DNA of 62,797 bases, the filler included, from Stramenopiles sp. TOSAG23-6 (lineage: Eukaryota): the NCBI GenBank assembly GCA_900128565.1. It is 24 parts of 24 records of this genome, joined end to end, with 100 filler letters (N's around TTAATTAATTAA, not from the genome) between each part and the next. Parts side by side here need not be neighbours in the genome. Positions count along the whole stretch, not along the records: positions 10,530 to 13,057 come from LT637987.1; 23 more parts are not named here. One strand, 5' to 3'. Each line of letters starts with the position of its first letter. Position 1 is the first letter of the stretch. The notes under the pieces were generated by a model that saw only the letters and a list, made by a program, of their open reading frames with translations, was not told the DNA's origin and did not search any database. The translations under genes and the position numbers were made by a program. Shown in pieces: positions 146-34,145 of the stretch.

Positions 146-1543
146 ACCTTTAATATCCACATCTTCAATCAGTAATTTTTTTTCAACTAAAGTATCAGAA
201 TTATTACTAGGGTTAGGGTTATTATGGTTGTTAGGGTTAGGGTTCGAATCAGTTGAGAGGGTAGTGGAGACAATTATCGAAGGATCTTCATTTTTGATTA
301 TTTCTTTCAAACATGAAATTGCTTTTTTTGATACATTTCGATCTTCCCAAGTTCCGCCGCGATTCCAGGAACTTTTTTCCAAATTTTTTTTTTCCAGATT
401 TTTTTTTTTTTTTTCCAAATTTTCTTTTTCCAATTTTTTTTTTTCCAGATTTTTTGGATTTTTGTCCAAAATTTTTTTATTCTCCAAACTTTTCTTTTCT
501 CTTGATGGATTTATAGTGTTATACTTACTTATACGACTACGATACGCTCTATGCTTTTTTACACTGTCTTGATTGGTACAAGCAGTTCTGTGCTTAGGTG
601 TAGATGTGCTACTTGCTGTAGTAGTACAAGTAGGGCTAGGGTTAGGGCTATCACCAACTGCGCATTTTTGTTGATGTTTCGTTTTAATTTTTTCTTGTAT
701 TTGATTTAAAATGTAATCACATATTGCTAACAAACCTCCATTTGGTTTTATTAATGCAACATTTTGATGTTTAGTGTCAACCACTTTAGCATTGTCAACA
801 TTTTGAGTAACCAATGGCCCTGAAATCAACTTTATTAACCGTTTACGAGATGTTTTTAATCGTTGTTCATCTTTTTTATCTAAAAGATTTGCTAATAATG
901 CACTTTTCATTTCACATGCTAAAGCATCAAGTTCATTATTTCGTGTTTTCTCAATATTGTGTATAATAAGTTTTGTTTCGTTTTCGATGTCTGACAAAGT
1001 CATACTGTTGACATGTTTTTCATTTATTCGTTTCGGATGAATTTGTATTTGAAGTGTATTTGTATTTTGAGTATTTTGAGTATGTTCATCATCATCACTA
1101 TCAATCACATCGGCAAATTCATCAAACGTATCCCATTTTGATTGTCGTTTGGTTCCATCTGAAGTGAAGAAATAATAATCACTGTTCAATGGACTCCCTG
1201 ACTTTTTTGATTTTTTTGTCTCCAACTTTTCTAGCTTTTCTAGCTTTTCTAACTTGGCAGTTGGAATAGCCTTGAATAATTCAAATATCCTCCTTTTGTG
1301 TATATTTAATCGATATTGAATATCTCGTAGTCGTTTTTTGTACTCTTTCCGTGTACTATTTTGTTTTTGAAGACGTTGACGTTTCATCAAGTTTCCATCC
1401 CAGAAGTACAACAAGGCATCTCGAACATCTTGACGTGTACACACAACGAATAGAGACAATATACCAACACCTACAAGTACTTTGCGTTTTGTATCCAAAC
1501 CTAAAAGTAGTTTACGTTTTATATCAAAGAACATAGCATTCAT
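146..1543 (-). CDS. Protein with N-terminal hydrophobic segment, coiled-coil/low-complexity middle and start of an Aha1 N-terminal-like domain (3' partial)
   Basis: Long ORF; SSWNRGGTWEDRN resembles the SAWN.AGTWEEK motif of Aha1_N proteins; interrupted at 145 by a family intron (GGT|GTACGT..GTACCTAAC). Confidence 0.55.
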
Positions 1544-1854: not shown

Positions 1855-2426
1855 TTAAAAATCTTTCTCAGACACTAAAATACAATTCAAATTTTTCAAA
1901 AATCGAGCAAAATAAATATTGTAGGAAAATATTTTTTTCAAAAAAAACTCAAAATTTGTTAGGTATAAAATTTCGTATGAAAAAAAAAAAAAAAAAAATT
2001 TCAAAAAAATTTCAAAAAAAAAAATGAATACACGAAAAACGTACATAAATCTGGATGTATTGACGAAACACCCGAACCCTTCAATTGCTCCAATTGTTTC
2101 CTAAACCCCCATTGGGTGCAACAATCAATTAATGAAATTTGATAAATTTCAGCATAATTTGTAGAAAAAAAACAATTTTGAGAATTTTGAAAATATTGTA
2201 AATCCAAATGTTTTGTGTTTTCGTCAAATGAATTTTTTTTTGTTTTTATATTTTTTATATTTTTTTCATTTTTTTCGTTTTTTGCTAGATTTCGTGGAGT
2301 AAAAGGACGAGGAAATTTTATATTTTTGTATATACATTTACATACTAAAGCACGTTCTTGTATACAATTTGCCCATACTATTGCATCAGTGTTGTCTTGG
2401 GCAACTAATGTTAATGACGTCATTGC
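1855..2426 (-). CDS. Terminal exons of an unidentified gene (possible end of a PH domain)
   Basis: Exon 2045-2426 is open and bounded by family intron ends; LTLVAQDNTDAIVWANCIQ resembles a PH C-terminal helix; last-exon frame is ambiguous. Confidence 0.35.
1912..2044 (-). other. Family intron, AT|GTACGT...; 3' end at 1912 or 1914
   Basis: Contains CATACGAAATTTTATACCTAAC and ATATTTTCCTACAATAT; no AG at the end. Confidence 0.65.
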
Positions 2427-5479: not shown

Positions 5480-6425
5480 GGTTTATAAAAGTATATAAAG
5501 AAAATGATAAACCAATCATGTCTTGGCCAGTTCAAAGTATGTATGTTTTAATTTTTGAAAATTTGATTTTTTTTTTTTTTTTTTAATAGTAAATTTTGTA
5601 CCTAACAATTTTTTTTTTATAGAAAATTTTGAAATATTTTTCTAAAATACATGATTACAAGCCATAAAGATCATTCTGAAGGATTCATGACAACCAGTGA
5701 AATATTTACTTCAAAATCAAAATCAAAATCAAAATCAGTAGGGTTAGGGTTAGGGTCAGAGGAAACTACTTCAAAAGGGATGATTTCAAAAGATGATAAA
5801 GATGATAAAGAGTTAGTTATTTCTGGAATTGCATATTCAGGTAATGGTAATGGAATAAGTACTGTTGAGGTTTCAATTGATGGGGGAGAGTCATGGATGG
5901 ATGCAAATTTATTGGACACAAAAAAAAACACGAAAACCCCCAAAAAAAACACAAAAACCCCAAAAAACAACACAAAAAATAAAATTCTGGACAGTACAAC
6001 AAACAAAGATAAAAAAATAAAAGATATTCTTGATCCATCTGTTCAAAACAATAATGATGTGAAAAGGACTACAAATAATAATAATAATGATGATGTAGTA
6101 GAAAATACTACAAATAATTGTGAAGATAGTCATGAAGAAAAAAATTGGGCTTGGACTCGATGTAAGTTTTTTTTTTTTTTTTTTTTTTAATTTTTTTTTG
6201 TACGAAATTTTGTACCTAAAAATTTTTTTTTTTTTTTACAATACATGGCAATCAGATCCTATCAAAATTCAAAACATTAATTCAATAAAAGAATTAAATT
6301 TGGCATGTAAAGCAAAAGATACTGACGGGAATGAACAGCCTAATACTCATGTTGATGCAGTAAAGGCACATCCAAGTGGTTATTTATTCAATGGTATTCA
6401 TCACGTAACTGTTAAAGTAAAATAA
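5480..6425 (+). CDS. Sulfite oxidase-family protein, C-terminal Mo-co dimerisation domain (exons ~5480-5540, 5653-6161, 6247-6425)
   Basis: Spliced WPVQSMITS, GIAYSGNG..I..VEVSIDGGESW, WAWTRW, CKAKD..GNEQP. Confidence 0.85.
5541..5652 (+). other. Family intron AT|GTATGT...ATACAT
   Basis: Removal gives PVQSMITS; using the upstream AG at 5622 would introduce TGA. Confidence 0.85.
6162..6246 (+). other. Family intron AT|GTAAGT...ATACAT
   Basis: Removal rebuilds the split Trp codon T|GG of the WAWxxW motif. Confidence 0.88.
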
Positions 6426-7899: not shown

Positions 7900-10429
7900 A
7901 AGAGGTTCCGGCAGAATTAACAAGTGACCGCAAATACCCGTCCCATTTTAAACGACCATTGTAGTCACTAGTGCCAGCAACACTCCAAACAAACGTAAAC
8001 ATGAAAATTGGATCAAGGTGGCCCATCAGTTTATCCATTACTTCCGAAGTAGGTGGATCTTGTCCATCTTTGTAGCGATATTTCGCAAAGAAACAATCCA
8101 AAAATCGCATTAGTGATCCTGCAAGATTATTGTTTACAGATGGGACTGCTTCCTTAATATGTCGACGTAAGAAATTCAAAGATCCATGCAAATAAATATC
8201 AAACTTTTCACGCAGCTTCTTTTTAAATTCAGCGCTGAAAGCGCGGGGTAAAATACTAAACCATGAGTCAATTGCTGGGTCAAGACCAAGGGAGTACAAA
8301 CACGAATCATATTTGCAAGAACTCCATCACGCCACTCATGTGTATTAGGGTCAAAACTGCCATAGAGCTGACCCATTGTAATAGACTTTGGATTTATATA
8401 CTTCACCCACACTGTTTCAAAACGCTTTCCTGTGACATTGTATTCTTTCAGCATCGTCAAAGCATCCTGTAATACATAGATGTTACTACTTTTTCCACCT
8501 CCAGTTGGACCAACGACCATGAGACCATGGCGTACCACAATCATTTCATACAATTGAATCACTTTGTCAATAAACCAAGGGTGTTGCTGTAAATTCTTTT
8601 TTTTGCACACCGTTTTTATACATGCAAGAAGGGCACCATAATCAATTTCTGGCTTCTTCTTCCCTGGAAAGAGATCGGACATAATACCCTGGAAAAGTGG
8701 CAAATCATGACTGAGAAATTTAGGTTCATTTACATCAATGAGACCTCGAAGCATGAGAACTTCTTCATCTTCGTCGGGTTCTTCCCCTTTTAAATTACCT
8801 GCAGCAACAATTACAGTTTTCACAGCGCGCATCCCATAATCGTAGTGATCTTGCGATGATAGCTGTTCTGAACACAGACGAAATGTGGCAACCATCTTTT
8901 GTGCATTTGATCTCGCTTTGCTGAACCCATACGCAAAGAGCATAATTTCTCCAATCAAAGCATAATCGGGAACCATCATAGCAATTGGACGGAATAAGGC
9001 AGCAAGATTATCTGGTAAAGCAGTTCGACCAGCATAACCGGGATTCATAGTGATGAAAACAGCAAATTGCCAGTTTAATTTAATATCAGTTTCATCAAAC
9101 ATGATTCTTGTTTGTCCAGCTCGTACACCACCTTGAAGTGTCATAATTTGTTGTGCAATTACTGAGAGAACTTCGATGAGAATCCGATTAAATTCGTCAA
9201 AACAACACCAGGCACCGCAAGATGCCAAACCCTTGAAGAATTTTGCGGTCATTTTGAAATCCATGCCATCAGAACAATTAAACACGACACATTGTTTAGC
9301 TAAACCCTTAGCCATATCCTTCACAGTCTCTGTTTTGCCTGTACCAGCAGGCCCCGCAGGAGCGCCGCCGAGAATATTTTCGATTGCACTCATAAGAGTT
9401 ATATAGCACTTGTCTGTAAGTGGTGTAATTACAAGACGGAAAGAGTTGCCGAGATATTCGTATGAATATGGTCGCTTAGATGTTACCATAATAGCCCCCA
9501 AATCTCCTGCGACGCCTTCTGGAGTTCCATTTTTCCAATCTCCATCAGTCCAATAGTATCGCAACTGAGTCAACCACGCAAAATCATTTTTACTACATAC
9601 TCCATTTGCTACCATTTTTTTACTAACATCCTTTGCGTGGACATCAATTACAGCAAGTGCGCCGGTAGATGTTCGACCAAGTTTTGATAGATTGGGATTC
9701 CGGACAAGGCGAACCATATCTTCAAGCTGGTTTAGTTGAATTTGATAGTACTTCTTTAGTCCTTCAAATCCCTCAGTGTCAAAGAATTCTTCAAGTTCCG
9801 AAGTCCAATGAACTTGACTACCATTGAGCACACACTGACCAGGCCATTTTTGCATCCATTCAGTACGGGAGATCTTGGTATAATCTATAATTGACTCCCA
9901 CATACGAGCGCGTATTGCTAAACACATACCTGTTTCAACGTCATTCATCCAATCTTCGACATTCACACCAGCTGTTTGAACTTTTTCGACGAATTGAACT
10001 TCTTCTTTTTCCCTAGATTTCATACTGGTGATTCCATTATCTTCGGGATCAAAATGGACTTCTTTAATTGCCTCAAAACACTTCTTCAGATGTGGCTGTA
10101 CTAAAGTAGGATCTTTAGTTTCAGAAAGGATTTCAAGCAACTCATCATTGGCGAGAAAATAAAAACGTGAAAAACCAGCTCTCTTTGTTTCAAGATAATC
10201 ACTTAAACCTTTCATGACGAGATCAAGAAACTTGTTGCTTTCCTGAAACTTTTCACATAATTGGGGATTGTCACAGAATTCAACAGCTTTAGATCGTTTT
10301 ATAGCTTGAAGCATCACTTTGCGCCAATTTTTATCCACTGTGAAAAAACGTTTGCTCTCTACAGGAAGCTGTTTTTTAATATCATCACTGTCAAAAATAG
10401 GTTGCAGATATAACCAATTGCGTTGAACG
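7900..10429 (-). CDS. Axonemal dynein heavy chain fragment (linker, AAA1, AAA2) with an apparent internal deletion/frameshift near 8295
   Basis: RLVITPLTDKCY, GPAGTGKTETVKD, WCCFDEFNRI, ITMNPGYAGR, QLSSQDHYDYGMRAVK, VGPTGGGKS. Confidence 0.97.
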
Positions 10430-10724
10430 NNNNNNNNNNNNNNNNNNNNNNNNNNNNNNNNNNNNNNNNNNNNTTAATTAATTAANNNNNNNNNNNNNNN
10501 NNNNNNNNNNNNNNNNNNNNNNNNNNNNNTTTTTTTTTATTTTTTTTTTTTTTTTTTGTGAATTTTTTTTTGAAATTTCGATTTTTTTTTTTTTTGTACG
10601 AAATTTCATACCTAACGTTTTTTTTTTTTTTGAAATTTTTTTTTGAAATTTTTTTTTTTGAAAATTTTGTACCTAACATTTTTTTTTTTTATAGTAAATT
10701 TTGAAATATGTTTTTACAATTAAT

Positions 10725-11003
10725 GTACTACAAAAGAATGGATAAAACAAAATTCACCAGATGGAAAATTAACTGGTTTGAAAAAAACGTTTGAAAAAAT
10801 AAAATTGTTAAATTATGAACATTGCGCAACTTCATCTGGACCTGTAACCGTCGGAGGTGCAAAAACTATATATGTTTAATTTTTTTTTTCAAAAAAATCG
10901 AATTTTTTTTTCGTACGAAATGTTGTACCTAACAATTTTTTTTTTTTTTTGAAATATTTTCCTAAAATATAGACGTGATATTGTTGAATCAAATATGAAA
11001 TAG
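10725..11003 (+). CDS. Last two exons of an unidentified gene
   Basis: Open exon 10725-10869 lies between family introns; short terminal exon of uncertain frame. Confidence 0.4.
10870..10972 (+). other. Family intron with non-GT start, AT|ATATGT...ATAT(AG); 3' end at 10970 or 10972
   Basis: Contains TTCGTACGAAATGTTGTACCTAAC and GAAATATTTTCCTAAAATAT. Confidence 0.6.
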
Positions 11004-11045
11004 ATTTAATTTTTACACTGTAAAAATAACAAAAATAAAACATAG

Positions 11046-11174
11046 ATGTATTGTGAAGAACATTTTTTTTTGTTTACAATTTACATTCGTTAGGTACAAA
11101 ATTTTCATAGTTAAAAAAAAAATAAATTCGAAATTCAAAAAAAAAAAAAATTAATTTTATTTTTTTTTCAGAAC
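11046..11174 (-). other. Family intron TT|GTTCTG...ATACAT (5' end tentative)
   Basis: GAAAATTTTGTACCTAAC and TTCACAATACAT present; starts just before the apparent stop of the NPNP-rich ORF. Confidence 0.55.
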
Positions 11175-12948
11175 AAATTTTCCTTTACCATTTCTAAATA
11201 TTGTTTTGAATTTCGCCCAATGTGTTTTGCCATAATTTCATCCATTTCTGCTTCTAAAGTGGCAGTTTTAAAATCTGTATCGGCTAATAAGGCATCAATA
11301 TCACTTGTAATGCTAGGGTTAGGGTTATCTCTCTCGGCTAATAAGGCATCAATATCATTTGTAATATCATTTGTAATGCTACTAGGGTTAGGGTTGTTTG
11401 TCTTGGTACAATTTTTTGTAGGTGAAGAAAGTCCATATTTCAAATGATTATTCATTGTACGTAAAACAGCTGTCTCTCTTTTCAGCATTTCAGACCATTC
11501 TGTAGGGTTAGGGTTACTATTGTTATCAGAAAATATATTTTTATCTATTGTTGACGGTTTGCTGTTTAAACTATTTTCAATTCCTGGTGTATTTTCATCA
11601 TTAAAAACATCAAAAATAATTTTTTCATCAACTAATATTTTTTTCATATTTCGTGATTGATGGAATTCAAATGATTTAAAGGTGTTTTGATTTTCTTCAT
11701 TCAATGTTGAAATATTTTTAGTTGGGTCTATACTCTCATTTTGTTGATGATTTGGCGGTTCATTCATGGAATAGTTTATTTTATGACAATCTTGTATCGT
11801 ATCAGTAGGGTTAGGGTTATACGATTCATTTATCTTTTTTGAAAAAAAATCGGTATTTCGTATTGTATCATCAGTACTAGGGTTAGGGTTATAGTATTCA
11901 TTAGGGTTAGGGTTTTCACTATACGCTGTTGTGTCCAAATCAGTATATGATTCATCAATAGTATCATGATTAGGGTTAGGGTTATTTGTTGTGTCCAAAT
12001 CTATACCAAGATCACCAAGATTTGTTGGATGATTGAGTTCTGTTTCATAGTCATCATTCACATCATTAGGGTTAGGGTTAGTATATGAAATATCATCGAC
12101 ATCACTACTAGGGTTAGGGTTATACGAAACATCAGTCACATCATTAGGGTTAGGGCTATCATTTTCAAATGAAAATGAACTTGAATAATCATCATTTATG
12201 TCCCTAATAATATCATCATATAATGGTCGTGATTGTACTAAAGTTGTTGTGTTCTTTATAGTGACTTCATTCATGTTTATTTTTTCTACTTTATTTGATT
12301 TATTTTCATCACTGTTCAGCCCTAACCCTAGTATTGTTGTTGATTCTTCAAAATTATCATTTCGTGTATTTTTTATTTCATCGGAAATCAATTCTTCATG
12401 GTTAATATCATGATGAACAGTATCATCATCGCTATTATACATCTTGATTATAGGAGTCGTCGCAGTTCCATCATCAGTTGTCGTACTCATCACAATAGGG
12501 TTAGGGTTACTCATCACAATAGGGTTAGGGTTACTCATCACAATAGGGTTAGGGTTAGGGTTAGGGTTCAATGGTATCGACGACCAAGGCCATTTTTTAC
12601 ATGGAACATTTGAATCATTGTCACCACTAGAATCACTTTTAATACTACAATCACTGAAATCACTGAAATTACTATAGTCAATGTCATTTTCATCTATTGT
12701 GTTTTCTACAGAATTTGAACTGTAGAAAGAAGAACGATATTTTTCTGTATTTTTGGAAAATATTTCAAAATTTACGAAAAAATAAAAAGCTTAGGTACAA
12801 AATTACGTACGAAAAAAAAATTACCAAAAAAATTACCAAAAAAATAAAAATCGAATTTTAAAAAATAAAAAGATACCTGAAATTCGTGTTAATTTCGTTA
12901 GTTCTCTCATTCGTTTTTTCTGTCTTCGATCCACGTCATACAAGACAC
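11168..12948 (-). CDS. Low-complexity D/N/P-rich protein with many NPNP motifs (5' partial; exon 12877-12948, then a long exon from 12744)
   Basis: Frame is continuous after removing 12745-12876; NPNP is encoded by AACCCTAACCCT. Confidence 0.65.
12745..12876 (-). other. Family intron with canonical ends, AG|GTATCT...ATACAG
   Basis: Same internal motifs as the AT-ending copies; in-frame join RISE-KYRS. Confidence 0.85.
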
Positions 12949-13157: not shown

Positions 13158-14655
13158 ATTCTTCACATGTCGCATTTGCAGTTGTTTGTTCATTACATAT
13201 TTTTGTATTTTCAGCATTTGTGTCATTTGGAGGCACATAACTGCTCTGTCGTACTACAACTAAATCAAATAATTTATTTGATATATCTTGAGCTACTTTT
13301 TTAGAGTTTTTATTATTATTTCGTATTTCAGAAATTCCATTGCTTTTCATATAAAGACACTGCCAATCTTCACGAGATACACCATTTATACCAAATACTT
13401 GATCACATTTCGCTAATGCATTAAATGCCAATGTAAATGCATCTTTTCGTGCTTTATAATGTCTCTCTATAAATAAATGTCGGTTATGATTAAATCGTCT
13501 TACTGCAATAGCAACCATGTATTGTGAAAAAATATTTTTTNNNNNNNNNNNNNNNNNNNNNNNNNNNNNNNNNNNNNNNNNNNNNNNNNNNNNNNNNNNN
13601 NNNNNNNNNNNNNNNNNNNNNNNNNNNNNNNNNNNNNNNTACAAAATTTCGTATGGAAAAAAACATAAATTCAAAATTGAAAAAAAATAAAACATACATA
13701 ATACGAAATAGAAACATTTTTGTCAGTAAAAAAAATGTCACAAAAAAAAAAGCATTAAAATCTCCTCCAGTTTCAACTGATTCCTTACCATCATTATAAT
13801 ACGATGTATGCATTGCTAATATTTGTGAACTTGACATAAATAATAAGAACATTTCATACAATCCAATCAAAAAATTCTGAAAATACATTTTTGGTTCAGA
13901 AGAATGAAATATTAAATATCCAAAATAACTGTAACCAATAACGACCAGTAAAATAAGAAAAAGTACAACAAATACACAATCAACAACTTGTAATACATTC
14001 GATAATATTGAACGAACATTCGTCAAACGAAATAGTACAATAAGTGGTATTAAACATGTTGAATATCGAATTTCCGTCCAACCTAAAGTAAAAGTGAATA
14101 AATCTAGAGCTGTCAAAATACTAACAAATAACCGCGCAATTGTCCAATGACAAATTTGTTTTCTTGATCTTGTTTTCATTCGTAGTATACAGTCAAATAT
14201 ATAGATCCAAATAAAACATGCTTCTAATAGAGCCACTAAGATTTCTGTACTATTATCTTTTAGGATAATACTATTTTTTGTTTTACTCAATAAAAGCCCT
14301 GTAAAAGGTATAAGAATTCCATATTTGTAATTAACACTGCCTCTTCGTTACTAACATTTAAATCATTCAAACCATTTTCATCACTAAACGCTACAGCAAC
14401 AAGTTTCCCTTGACTCACATTATAATCAACATCTGTGATGGTATTGCGAGGAGGCGCTTCACAAAAATCGTTCAAATTTACTGCTGAAGACAATCGTTCT
14501 TGCTTTGTTTCTTCAATCTTTGAAACTTCAGCTCTCACACGCGTTCTTTTCCTACAAAATACACCACGAATGAATGCCTGAATTTTACGTGCTTCATGCC
14601 ATCCTTCAACATGTATAGACAAGTCCTCAGATGACACTGAGGCCTCGTCTTTCAT
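13158..14655 (-). CDS. Two-pore channel-like cation channel with an N-terminal IQ-like motif (3' partial; frame break near 14290-14350)
   Basis: TM helices LEACFIWIYIFD, S4-like FRLTNVR, pore YFQNF..GLYEMF, S6; ARKIQAFIRGVFCRK. Confidence 0.6.
13517..13697 (-). other. Family intron AT|GTATGT...ATACAT (contains an N gap)
   Basis: Removal gives a continuous S6 helix, FLFRIMVAIAVRRF. Confidence 0.75.
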
Positions 14656-28905: not shown

Positions 28906-28982
28906 GTCCTGGGAAGCCTTCATTTTTATGTATTTGTCAAAAAAAAAAAAAAAAAAAATTTTTAGGAAAAAAATTTTTTTAC

Positions 28983-29015
<33 letters not shown>

Positions 29016-30111
29016 ATTGAAAATGTACATTTTTTGCTTTCATTATTTTAAGAATGGTATTTGTTTTTTTGAACGCCCAAAGAAAAATGGTACGCACACT
29101 TGCAAATGCTAAGATTTCGTGTATTGGATGAAATGCAAGTGAAACGACGTGCTTATCTACATGGATACAATGAATACATGTAATATATGAAAATATACCA
29201 AATGTTTGATTTTTTAAGAAAAAAAAATTTAAAAAAAAAATTTTAAATGAAATAGGTTAGGGTTAGGGTTAACATACAAGCACTTGTTGATATTTTCCAA
29301 ATACGAACTTCAAACGCTAAACAACCAGACGCGACGATATCATTATTACGAGGATGAAATTTGACTGTCCATATATAGTAAAAAAATATTTTACATTTTG
29401 AAATGGGTCAAAATATTTTGTTAGGTACAGAATTTTCTATAAAAAAAAAAATACATAAGAATTAGGGTTAGGGTTTGAAAACGTACATGGAGTTCGACGA
29501 TGTCCCTCCAGCACAGCTTTATTTTTACCTTCTGGAAAAGTTGTCACCTTCACTGTATGGTCACCATGTGTAGATGCAAATAATGTTCCATCAGTACTAA
29601 AAGAAACAGATATTGTTGATTTTGTTACACCTGGCATTTTCACATATTTAAAGGAGTGGTGTTTCATTGACGTTTCTTCACACCAATATCGAATTTGTTC
29701 TTTACTCTCATTGATACCAAAAATACGATTTTGTATAGTTTTAGAAATGTTTGTATATTCATTTGATGTTGATGTTGGTAATGATCCAAAAGATGTACTA
29801 TTATTTAGAGTTCTAGATACAATATTTGGAATAGAGGAGGTCAACGCGTCTTTTGTTTTGTTAGGGGAATTGAATGGAAGGACTTCAATAGGTTTCGTGN
29901 CCATCACTGAAAAGTCGTCGTTTTTATCCTCTAAAGAGACTGAATCTCTATCTTCTAAATCATTTAGACGTCTTCGACACATTGGACGTATGGTATGATC
30001 GTTTCTGTGTGTCGTATCATTACACATTTTGGTTTTCAACAAAGTTACATCAAAACCAGCTGTACAACGTTCATGTGCAAATGCTGACGACGAGACATAT
30101 GAGTTGATCAT
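28906..30111 (-). CDS. AMBRA1-like WD40 protein (exons 29487-30111, 29278-29370, 29029-29177, 28906-28927; 3' partial)
   Basis: Spliced FASTHGDHTVKV..LEGHRRTPWTVKFHP..IVASGCL..EVRIW..SLAFHP. Confidence 0.85.
28928..29028 (-). other. Family intron AT|GTACAT...ATACAT
   Basis: Family termini; in-frame join KAKN-KNEGF. Confidence 0.7.
29178..29277 (-). other. Family intron TT|GTATGT...TTACAT carrying telomeric repeats
   Basis: Removal gives IWKISTSACIHC and keeps the WD40 frame. Confidence 0.8.
29371..29486 (-). other. Family intron AT|GTACGT...ATATAT
   Basis: Removal rebuilds the conserved GHRRTPW (T|GG). Confidence 0.9.
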
Positions 30112-33325: not shown

Positions 33326-33960
33326 ATGTCGTCTCGCACAGCAAACAATGGTACAATTGTGCATAGTAGTGACAGTAAATCTTTATGGAACTATACGCTC
33401 TCTCCCGGCTGGACTCATGCCGAGGCTGAAGTATATAAACTAGCTTTGATGAAGTATGGTATCGGTAATTACAAACGTGTACTTACAGAGCGTATTTTGC
33501 CAGGAAAGACTGTTGCGCAGCTGAACAATCAATGTCAGCGTTTTTTGGGTCAGCAATCGACAAAGGCATTTCAAGGACTCAGGGTAGATTTACAAGCTGT
33601 TTTTGTTGCCAATGGAAAGCGTACTAATGTGAAAAGAAAAAATAACTGCATTGTAAATACAGGTGATAATCCAACTACAGAAAGTGTACGTATAGCAAAG
33701 GAAAAAAATCGTACATCATATGGTTTGAAACAGGAACGAATCGATGCAATTGTCATGTACGTTTTCATCATTTTTTCAAAAGACAAATTTTGTACCAAAT
33801 GTTGTACCAAATGTTGTACCAAATGTTGTAATTAACGAATTTCGAATTTGACATATTTTTTTTACAGTACATACCAACTCTTCGTCAAGAAGATCTTTCT
33901 TCTGTTTTTGTGAAAACTGATGCGTCCAAGAGACAGACAAAAATCGAAAGGCTTAAGTAT
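33326..33960 (+). CDS. Homolog of the p1 (Myb/homeodomain-like) subunit of the MTA1c/AMT1 DNA 6mA methyltransferase complex (exons 33326-33756, 33873-33960; 3' partial)
   Basis: SKSLWNYTLSPGW, ALMKYGIG, LPGKT, QRFLGQQS and RKNNCIVNTGDNPT match ciliate p1 as recalled; not checked by search. Confidence 0.8.
33757..33872 (+). other. Family intron AT|GTACGT...GTACAT
   Basis: Removal gives IDAIVIPTLR; the CAG at 33867 would lead to a stop. Confidence 0.85.
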
Positions 33961-34145
33961 GTATGTTTTATTTTTTTTCAAATTCGAATATTTTTTCGTA
34001 CGAAATTTTGTACCTAACGAATTTTTTTTCAAATATTTTTCCAAANNNNNNNNNNNNNNNNNNNNNNNNNNNNNNNNNNNNNNNNNNNNTTAATTAATTA
34101 ANNNNNNNNNNNNNNNNNNNNNNNNNNNNNNNNNNNNNNNNNNNN

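Follow-up and report, generated by a model that had tools for sequence, protein, structure and literature searches.

The stretch at 12745-12876, read on the minus strand, is probably one member of a high-copy family of short, very AT-rich and mutually homologous spliceosomal introns, that is, of introners. It lies in a window (the whole stretch of DNA analysed, 62,797 bases) from Stramenopiles sp. TOSAG23-6. The window holds 23 unique complete copies of this single homologous family, ~85-220 nt long, together with ~16 that are cut off at contig ends. They are mutually homologous introns of one repeat family, introners placed at non-homologous positions in unrelated genes, and the unit removed from each gene is a GTAT..ATAC element plus two bases. 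Family, anatomy and this element-plus-two rule are solid. The duplication of a 2-nt target and the AT-AC termini, both proposed in the original prediction made from the DNA of the window, have the standing of hypotheses, AT-AC being less likely than GT-AT.

The sequence first reported for the focal copy is correct when the minus strand is read. It runs ..TTTCAG|GTATCTTTTTATTTT...GTACCTAAG...GAAATATTTTCCAAAAATAC AG|AAAAATATCG.., in short AG|GTATC..ATACAG|. The intron starts GTATCTTTTT and the element ends CCAAAAATAC, followed by AG and the exon AAAAAT; the upstream exon also ends in AG, at 12878-12877. Because AG comes right after ATAC, this copy is a normal GT-AG intron. No further AG is found from its branch motif to its end, and excision of the element plus two bases fuses open frames of 42 and 524 codons. 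Its parts are as follows.

12745-12876, minus strand: focal intron, 132 nt, GT-AG, phase 1, with GTATCT from 12876, ATAC at 12750-12747 and AG at 12746-12745
12790-12798, minus strand: focal branch-site-like motif GTACCTAAG, 47 nt from the intron end (family consensus GTACCTAAC)
12747-12764, minus strand: focal conserved 3' block AATATTTTCCAAAAATAC, 2 positions off the family consensus

The window is made of 24 contigs of ~2.5-2.6 kb, ordered by decreasing length, with a join every ~2.6 kb from 2535 to 60294, each join consisting of 44 N, TTAATTAATTAA and again 44 N. As it strings together unrelated contigs, gene neighbourhood carries no meaning in it. Three contigs (36765-39282, 39383-41900 and 42001-44518) are identical, and the family copies that they carry were therefore counted once. 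The contigs are AT-rich, with a GC content of ~25-40% in the window.

The family has the layout GTATGTTT..TTTGTACCTAAC..AAATATTTTTCCAAAATAC. An alignment of 16 copies displays three conserved blocks, (AT)GTATGTTT, then AAATTTTGTACCTAAC(A/G)A followed by a run of T, and lastly GAAATATTTTTCCAAAATAC(AT), separated by variable runs of T and A; this conservation reaches beyond the splice signals. Measured against shuffled sequence, GTATGTTT is matched 19 times (4.7 expected), the 3' block AATATTTTTCCAAAATAC 32 times with at most 3 mismatches (0.97 expected), and the internal block AAAATTTTGTACCTAAC, which holds GTACCTAAC, 41 times (1.5 expected), the last two counts standing at 20-30 times chance. 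A branch-site-like TACCTAAC lies 35-56 nt from the intron end in 13 of the 18 copies scanned by script; elsewhere the script missed the motif (2 copies), took the CTAA of the 3' block instead (2 copies), or returned 112 nt, in 47852, where the block is duplicated. The 5' site is GTAnGT, mostly GTATGT, and the element begins with GT in 20/23 copies and with AT in 3/23. Its last two bases are AC in 18, AT in 3, AG in 1 and AA in 1. A C or T stands before the final A[T/G] in 21/23, the pattern of a standard YAG site. The genes that host the copies share no relationship (HECT ligase, JmjC/NO66-like, quinone oxidoreductase, WD-repeat, ion channel, FGAM synthase, others), and all copies that can be assigned to a gene lie on its sense strand. 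In many copies, for example at 33995-34006 and 10911-10922, we also noticed a 12-nt palindrome, TTTCGTACGAAA, directly upstream of the branch-like motif.

The reading frames support the view that these are introns. Excising the element plus two bases rejoins long open frames in 17/23 unique complete copies; four are ambiguous (52933, 29028, 2044 and 10870, owing to short terminal exons, micro-exons and contig ends) and two, 48127 and 51936, are exceptions. The frames at 48843 and 49040 were inferred from the chain of exons of the HECT gene, the HECT domain itself being encoded in a later exon, 49357-49665. Conserved protein is recreated at the oxidoreductase junctions (..IQLAVAKG|MNVITTAGS, ..LVINY|KKQDF and ..MVGGDY|LQNNIDIL) and at a WD-repeat junction, ..GHRRTP|WTVKFHPRNNDIV (RTP|WTVKFHP). 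Two protein searches were uninformative at the joints: with FGAM synthase homologues the alignment stops at the exon end, and JmjC exon 2 retrieved only its own open reading frame as present in a second assembly (99% identity) and one homologue at 48%, whose S decides neither for L nor for M. The second GT of GTATGT was considered as a 5' site and discarded, being out of frame. The copies are listed here with the dinucleotides that flank the element, or with its ends between bars.

47590-47723, plus strand: HECT ligase copy, CT..AT, whose ends are proper solely as GT-AT; use of the AG found 31 nt short of the end would shift the frame
47852-48022, plus strand: HECT copy, AT..AT, internal block duplicated
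48127-48344, plus strand: HECT copy, element ending in ATAG at 48338; ends 48338 and 48344 are both in frame (element +0 or +6)
48843-48973, plus strand: HECT copy, AT|GTATG..ATAA|AT, last element base A and not C; frame from the exon chain
49040-49140, plus strand: HECT copy, AT..AT; internal AG shifts the frame
49254-49356, plus strand: HECT copy, AT..AT; internal AG shifts the frame
55703-55797, plus strand: JmjC (NO66-like) copy, CT|GTGTG..ATAC|AT, fusing open frames of 207 and 215 codons
37453-37547, minus strand: quinone oxidoreductase intron 1, GGA AT|ATATTTCG..AAAATAC|AT G, lacking GT and proper only as AT-AC; identical copies at 40071-40165 and 42689-42783
37255-37373, minus strand: quinone oxidoreductase intron 2, AT..AT; duplicates at 39873-39991 and 42491-42609
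37066-37170, minus strand: quinone oxidoreductase intron 3, AT..AT; duplicates at 39684-39788 and 42302-42406
33757-33872, plus strand: family copy, AT|GTACG..TTTTACAGTAC|AT; an ACAG 5 nt before the frame-keeping end is unusable
5541-5652, plus strand: family copy, AT..AT
6162-6246, plus strand: family copy, AT|GTAAG..ACAATAC|AT
10870-10972, plus strand: family copy, AT|ATATG..ATAT|AG; a short last exon comes next and the frame test is uninformative
51936-52067, plus strand: FGAM synthase copy, AT|GTACA..ATAC|AT, the frame exception that needs element +1 or +4, not +2
52705-52805, minus strand: family copy, TT..AT
52821-52933, minus strand: family copy, AT|ATACG..ATAC|AA; a micro-exon comes next and the frame test is ambiguous
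13517-13697, minus strand: ion-channel copy, AT..AT, with a gap of 99 N within
1914-2044, minus strand: family copy, AT|GTACG..ATAT|TT, 3' boundary uncertain
29371-29486, minus strand: WD-repeat copy, AT|GTACG..TATAT|AT, last element base T
29178-29277, minus strand: WD-repeat intron, TT|GTATG..TTAC|AT, with CCCTAA repeats within; Ala-Cys at the junction in either register
28928-29028, minus strand: WD-repeat copy, AT|GTACA..AATAC|AT
57785 and 5118: partial copies, the first with a TT flank and cut off by a contig end, the second a 3' end whose last element base is not C

The micro-exon that separates the introns 52933 and 52805 measures 15-17 nt (52806-52822, minus strand).

The family probably extends well beyond the window. 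RNA contigs from four seawater libraries matched the intron parts of 47237-49753 in numbers of 813, 777, 84 and 1295, and the fact that hundreds of them aligned almost solely to intron parts argues for a very large family. The gapped family pattern, by contrast, was met in 0 stretches of the viral, metagenome and genome contigs that were searched; the 19-mer of the 3' block had 115 metagenome loci, of which 1/115 carried the branch motif with 1 mismatch allowed and proved unrelated on reading, and all were deemed chance matches. Words of the window were found only in seawater RNA libraries, which contained 5-12% of the words sampled. A dynein heavy-chain fragment of 750 residues finds its best named matches in oomycetes and in the dictyochophyte Pteridomonas (64-66% identity), ahead of Ectocarpus (61%) and Oikopleura (55%). 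On these two grounds the host is taken to be an uncultured marine stramenopile; a diplonemid or tunicate host was considered and excluded by the dynein matches, and a protein search with FGAM synthase gave no taxonomic signal. The assembly is of low grade – fragmented, with scattered N and triplicated contigs – and many of its contigs terminate within the repeat, as short-read assembly is expected to break at a high-copy repeat.

Where exactly the spliceosome cuts is a subtler matter. When both flanks are AT, the messenger RNA (mRNA) is identical whether the intron is AT..AC, TG..CA or GT..AT, as the initial view had it that DNA cannot separate the registers; the variant copies, through which we compared the registers, favour GT..AT. 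Of the 23 complete copies, 3 are exceptions to GT..AT and 8 to AT..AC, and we read the AT-flanked introns by a slight preference as GT..AT. The AT..AC register, two bases to the left, is possible but doubtful, and a mixed or other arrangement is less likely again. The proposal that the element gives GT-AG on AG and AT-AC on AT thus keeps its first half, in the focal copy, while its second half fits the copies worse than GT-AT. The CT- or TT-flanked complete copies 47590, 55703, 52805 and 29277, all in genes with open frames, keep their GT in the first register, while in the shifted one their first base would be C or T; likewise the partial copy 57785 (TT) keeps GT and would have T as its first base. 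In addition, four of the 23 (48971, 29373, 10970 and 1916) are AT-flanked with a last element base other than C, as is the partial 5118. For 47590 the mRNA would read ACGACT|GCACAA under GT-AT and ACGA|ATGCACAA two bases to the left; for 55703, TCACT|GTGTGT and TCA|ATGTGT. The deviant base of 29277, if exonic, falls on a synonymous third codon position (GCT vs GCA). Under a constant GT register the HECT gene would have five GT-AT introns and one GT-AG intron.

The AGs that the introns contain upstream of their ends bear on the same question. They cannot be the 3' site in four copies, 47590, 49040, 49254 and 33757. The AG downstream of the branch motif is unusable in the first three, since a cut there would leave 31 nt in the mRNA and shift the frame. 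At 33860-33872 a T-run leads into ACAG, with ..TACAT, the end that keeps the frame, 5 nt further on; what looks like a conventional 3' site is apparently skipped. According to the first-last nucleotide rule of yeast and mammalian splicing (G..G, A..C), an intron starting with A is expected to ignore AG. That the upstream AGs are unused points to AT-AC introns or to an altered recognition of the 3' site. As to the rule itself, 14/23 copies are readable as AT..AC and the focal copy as GT..AG, and 8/23 violate it in the AT register.

As a tentative proposal, plausible rather than probable, an introner burst would have made GT..AT the commonest intron type. The major spliceosome would pick a C-A-U 3' site in a set position past the conserved 20-nt block, ignoring the AGs upstream, and would also accept C-A-G, as in the focal copy, and A..C where the first G is lost, as in oxidoreductase intron 1. 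Independently of that proposal, each copy brings signals of the major-spliceosome type: GTAnGT, the branch-like TACCTAAC, the T-run and the 3' block ..AAATATTTTTCCAAAATAC. Restoring the frame takes the removal of the element and two more bases, AG in the focal copy (giving a normal GT-AG intron) and AT in about four fifths of the copies. The copies presumably spread by insertion, and this could have occurred by two routes: a 2-bp duplication of an AT target, or the placing of a unit already ending in AT beside an exonic AT.

A number of observations weigh against this picture. An ordinary spliceosome with G at intron position 1 is expected to prefer the upstream AGs. Three copies lack an initial GT, namely oxidoreductase intron 1, 52933 and 10870, and the first of these is clean as AT-AC only, which speaks for the AT-AC register. 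The element-plus-two rule is broken by 51936 in a conserved gene. Copy 48127 has a different 3' end, without the usual ATAC: its element ends CCAAAATAG, then AAAAAG, and it is enclosed by an 11-nt direct repeat, AGAAAAAGGTA (48116-48349), which no 2-nt duplication model explains. Some of these deviant ends may be assembly errors, given the grade of the assembly. Finally, the seawater RNA contigs on 47237-49753 mostly cover the intron repeat and hardly the exons, with no clean exon-exon joint among them, and therefore show neither splicing nor its register directly.

The flanks bear on how the copies came to their places. Before the element we find AT 17 times, CT 2, TT 2 and AG 2; after it, AT 18, AG 2, AA 2 and TT 1. 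The counts of 17, 5 and 2 in 24 given at the outset are recovered when the partial copy 57785 (TT) is added to the 23 complete ones. AT before the element is enriched (9.35% in the coding sequence of the window, P=2e-13); AG, at 2/23, is not (6.1%). Hence the idea that AT and AG targets dominate because they are spliceable fails for AG: AT alone dominates, and a splicing filter alone does not explain the target spectrum.

From these flanks the original prediction drew a DNA transposon, non-autonomous, bounded by GTAT..ATAC and duplicating 2 nt, an AT target making an AT-AC intron and an AG target a GT-AG intron. We consider this model, taken whole, rather unlikely. Several facts agree with it: the excised unit is the element plus 2 nt; AT is found on both sides in 14/23, and AG on both sides in the focal copy; oxidoreductase intron 1 is a clean AT-AC intron; and the upstream AGs go unused, as expected of an intron that starts with A. 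It also has precedent, for in other algae introners are described as DNA transposons whose duplication supplies a splice site (PMC11282704; PMC9860276). One survey is also explicit that a motif common to all introns cannot separate duplication from insertion preference, and that a locus-specific match is required (PMC9860276). It is on this point that the claim that the end of the intron copies the end of the exon falters: the two flanking dinucleotides are identical in 15/23, where shuffling the 3' flanks between copies leads one to expect 13.6 (P=0.20). Comparing position -2 with +1 gives no signal. For -1 and +2 the matches number 20/23, with 17.5 expected (P=0.02), in the model's favour, an excess owed to one G/G, that of the focal copy, which, with its AG on both sides, is the sole informative locus-specific match. 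The four complete copies flanked by CT or TT all have AT after ATAC, never CT or TT; under the model they, and the partial 57785, would become CT-AC or TT-AC introns, and four AT-flanked complete copies would become AT-AT or AT-AA. AG flanks are not enriched, as just seen, and of the two copies presented as clear AG cases the focal one has AG..AG, whereas 48127 ends in ATAG followed by AAAAAG and has no ATAC+AG end as predicted. Nor, in this gene-dense window, was a transposase seen, or any copy outside genes or antisense. From the proposed 2-nt target duplication there survives the excision of the element plus 2 nt; AT..AT is an across-copy consensus with one locus-specific case. The data allow for an AT target duplicated over 2 bp but do not demonstrate it; an AT borne by the element and placed beside an exonic AT fits equally well. 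Other duplications were considered and set aside: a 3-nt NAT (the base at -3 equals the last element base in 7/23, 5.5 expected, P=0.25), a TA as in Tc1/mariner (the element has no TA beside it), and anything beyond the AT pair (none seen by eye).

The short terminal inverted repeat, announced as a mark of the transposon, shrinks on inspection. Complementary ends are limited to GTAT/ATAC, 4 nt, with three A:T pairs more if a G is bulged; these carry no weight, since T abounds on the 5' side and A on the 3' side. RNA folds of 8 copies showed no stable end pairing (z-scores +1.0 to -2.5), a 4-bp end helix figuring in the minimum-energy fold of 2/8. The largest survey of introners sets at least 6 nt as criterion for a clear inverted repeat (PMC9860276), and 4 nt, being below it, is ambiguous at best. 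To make it six (ATGTAT/ATACAT), the flanking AT must be assigned to the element, in which case AT is no duplication. The inverted repeat is no real evidence for a transposon.

Insertion without any duplication, the intron itself being mobile (as GTATG..ATACAT or ATGTATG..ATAC) and landing directly beside an exonic AT, for example by reverse splicing, reverse transcription and recombination, is unlikely as well. It would account for the near-constant 3' AT, present in 18/23 and unchanged whether the 5' flank is AT, CT or TT, and nine contigs of one seawater RNA library align through the AT at 48021-48022 and diverge only beyond. All copies seen have the sense orientation of a transcribed gene, though selection on a DNA transposon in a gene-dense genome would lead to the same result. 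Families of introners with neither duplications nor inverted repeats are known (PMC9860276). The focal copy tells against this route, since its AG before and after would demand a T-to-G change and an exon end in AG by coincidence; neither an RNA intermediate nor a reverse transcriptase was seen.

Multiplied minor-spliceosome (U12-type) introns of the AT-AC class are very improbable. AT..AC termini are possible in 14/23, and the starts of the focal copy (GTATCTTT) and of oxidoreductase intron 1 (ATATATTT) partly resemble the U12-type 5' consensus, RTATCCTT. In the AT register, however, the 5' end of the family is ATGTATGTTT, not ATATCCTT, its consensus being (AT)GTATGTTT, and the 5' site ATGTATGT resembles no known AT-AC class. 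Moreover, TACCTAAC stands 35-56 nt from the end with a long T-run after it, whereas U12-type introns have their branch site ~10-15 nt from the end and no pyrimidine tract (PMC11282704). As weak evidence, the window being only 63 kb, Rfam gave no match in it at all, and with this none to a minor small nuclear RNA. Least credible of all is that these are not functional introns, and that a dispersed repeat disrupts genes or a poor assembly deceives us: the fragmentation, the contigs ending within the repeat, the N, the triplicated contigs and the many unspliced copies in RNA libraries would suit it, but exact excision of the element plus 2 nt rejoins frames in 17/23 and recreates conserved motifs in unrelated genes, and random disruption would keep neither this rule nor the sense orientation.

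The introners of marine algae (Micromonas pusilla, Aureococcus, Chrysochromulina, dinoflagellates) resemble our family (PMC11282704; PMC9860276; PMC12130899): many near-identical short introns in unrelated genes of marine protists, with a GC content below that of exons, bringing some or all of their own splice signals and leaving mRNA length unchanged. Known families have GT/GC-AG ends and duplications of 3-9 bp or none; here the 3' ends are mostly non-AG, or the introns AT-AC, and at most 2 nt are repeated. A 2025 survey discarded mainly non-canonical families lacking RNA support (PMC12130899), so that a family of this type could have been overlooked. In the literature we found no description of an introner family with GT-AT or AT-AC ends, nor one among the introns of MAST-4 or of stramenopiles, while the supplementary family tables of the surveys might list one.

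For the ends, the tunicate Fritillaria is the closest precedent, by analogy of pattern. Two Fritillaria have 3' AT in 34-44% of introns, with Y-A-Y as last three bases (PMC13326754). As here, AT or AC stands in place of AG and a T-rich tract is kept (PMC13326754; PMC11282704). The likeness is one of pattern only: in the GT register 17/23 copies end in CAT or TAT, and 17/23 have TAT, CAT or AAT before the element, much as Y-A-Y often precedes the 5' site in Fritillaria. There too the introns are proposed to come from small transposons whose duplication forms a splice site. By contrast, Fritillaria 5' ends are mostly AG and its duplicated triplet is TAC, whereas the 5' ends here are GT; and that host is an animal with duplicated, divergent U2AF genes, ours a stramenopile by its dynein matches. 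Amoebophrya introners (PMC7789003) share with this family repeated non-canonical introns, short direct repeats over exon-intron borders and complementary ends. There, however, the repeats are 3-5 nt, the inverted repeats 8-20 nt in hairpins and the borders highly variable; here complementarity is 4 nt without a stable fold, with one fixed pair of borders. A structured non-conventional intron of euglenid or Amoebophrya type was accordingly rejected, there being no stable end pairing and an end helix of at most 4 bp in 2/8 folds.

Bursts of intron gain are at present best explained by introners, and nearly all families described are GT/GC-AG, others being filtered from surveys. Here nearly every intron sampled belongs to one family with an otherwise textbook 5' site, branch site and T-tract, and AG is unusable in most copies. 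Such a genome would show how far the choice of 3' site drifts when a mobile element floods genes, and its natural series of variants (GT..AT, GT..AG, AT..AC, AT..AT) would put the first-last nucleotide rule to the test in vivo. The finding gains interest if non-AG 3' ends are confirmed. A true GT..AT family would constitute a second, independent origin of non-AG 3' splice sites outside Fritillaria, tied to one identifiable mobile element. Should the two flanking bases prove to be a duplicated target, none shorter would be known among those that supply splice sites, with the proviso that no search aimed at shorter ones was made.

Some minor features of the window deserve a mention. Two convergent genes at 10724-11060 have last exons that overlap on opposite strands, with a family intron before the short last exon of each. 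The telomere-like CCCTAACCCTAA, with at most 1 mismatch, is matched 31 times in the window (0.08 expected), for example at 11313-12566 (minus), 207-647 (minus), 5738-5755 (minus), 49599-49610 (plus), 29257-29268 (minus) and 37347-37358 (minus). Wherever the strand was checked (the 11168-12790 gene, the HECT exon at 49599, the introns at 29257, 29462 and 37347), it was the sense strand of the host gene. In several unrelated proteins its exonic occurrences are translated, in frame, into Asn-Pro runs (NPNPNP), and there are intronic ones too; it looks like a second, tiny insertion-prone repeat tolerated within coding sequence. The frame of the dynein heavy chain is broken at 8176-8326 (minus strand), where two open reading frames overlap in different frames, and ~90 residues that a dynein would be expected to have between its first two ATPase modules are seemingly missing; the cause may be a misassembly, a deletion or an intron that escaped detection. 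Finally, the intergenic region 45653-46052 is a foldback element whose inverted repeats, nested within one another, measure 61 nt (89% complementary), 39 nt (100%) and 35 nt (100%), a true long-inverted-repeat element, unlike the intron family.

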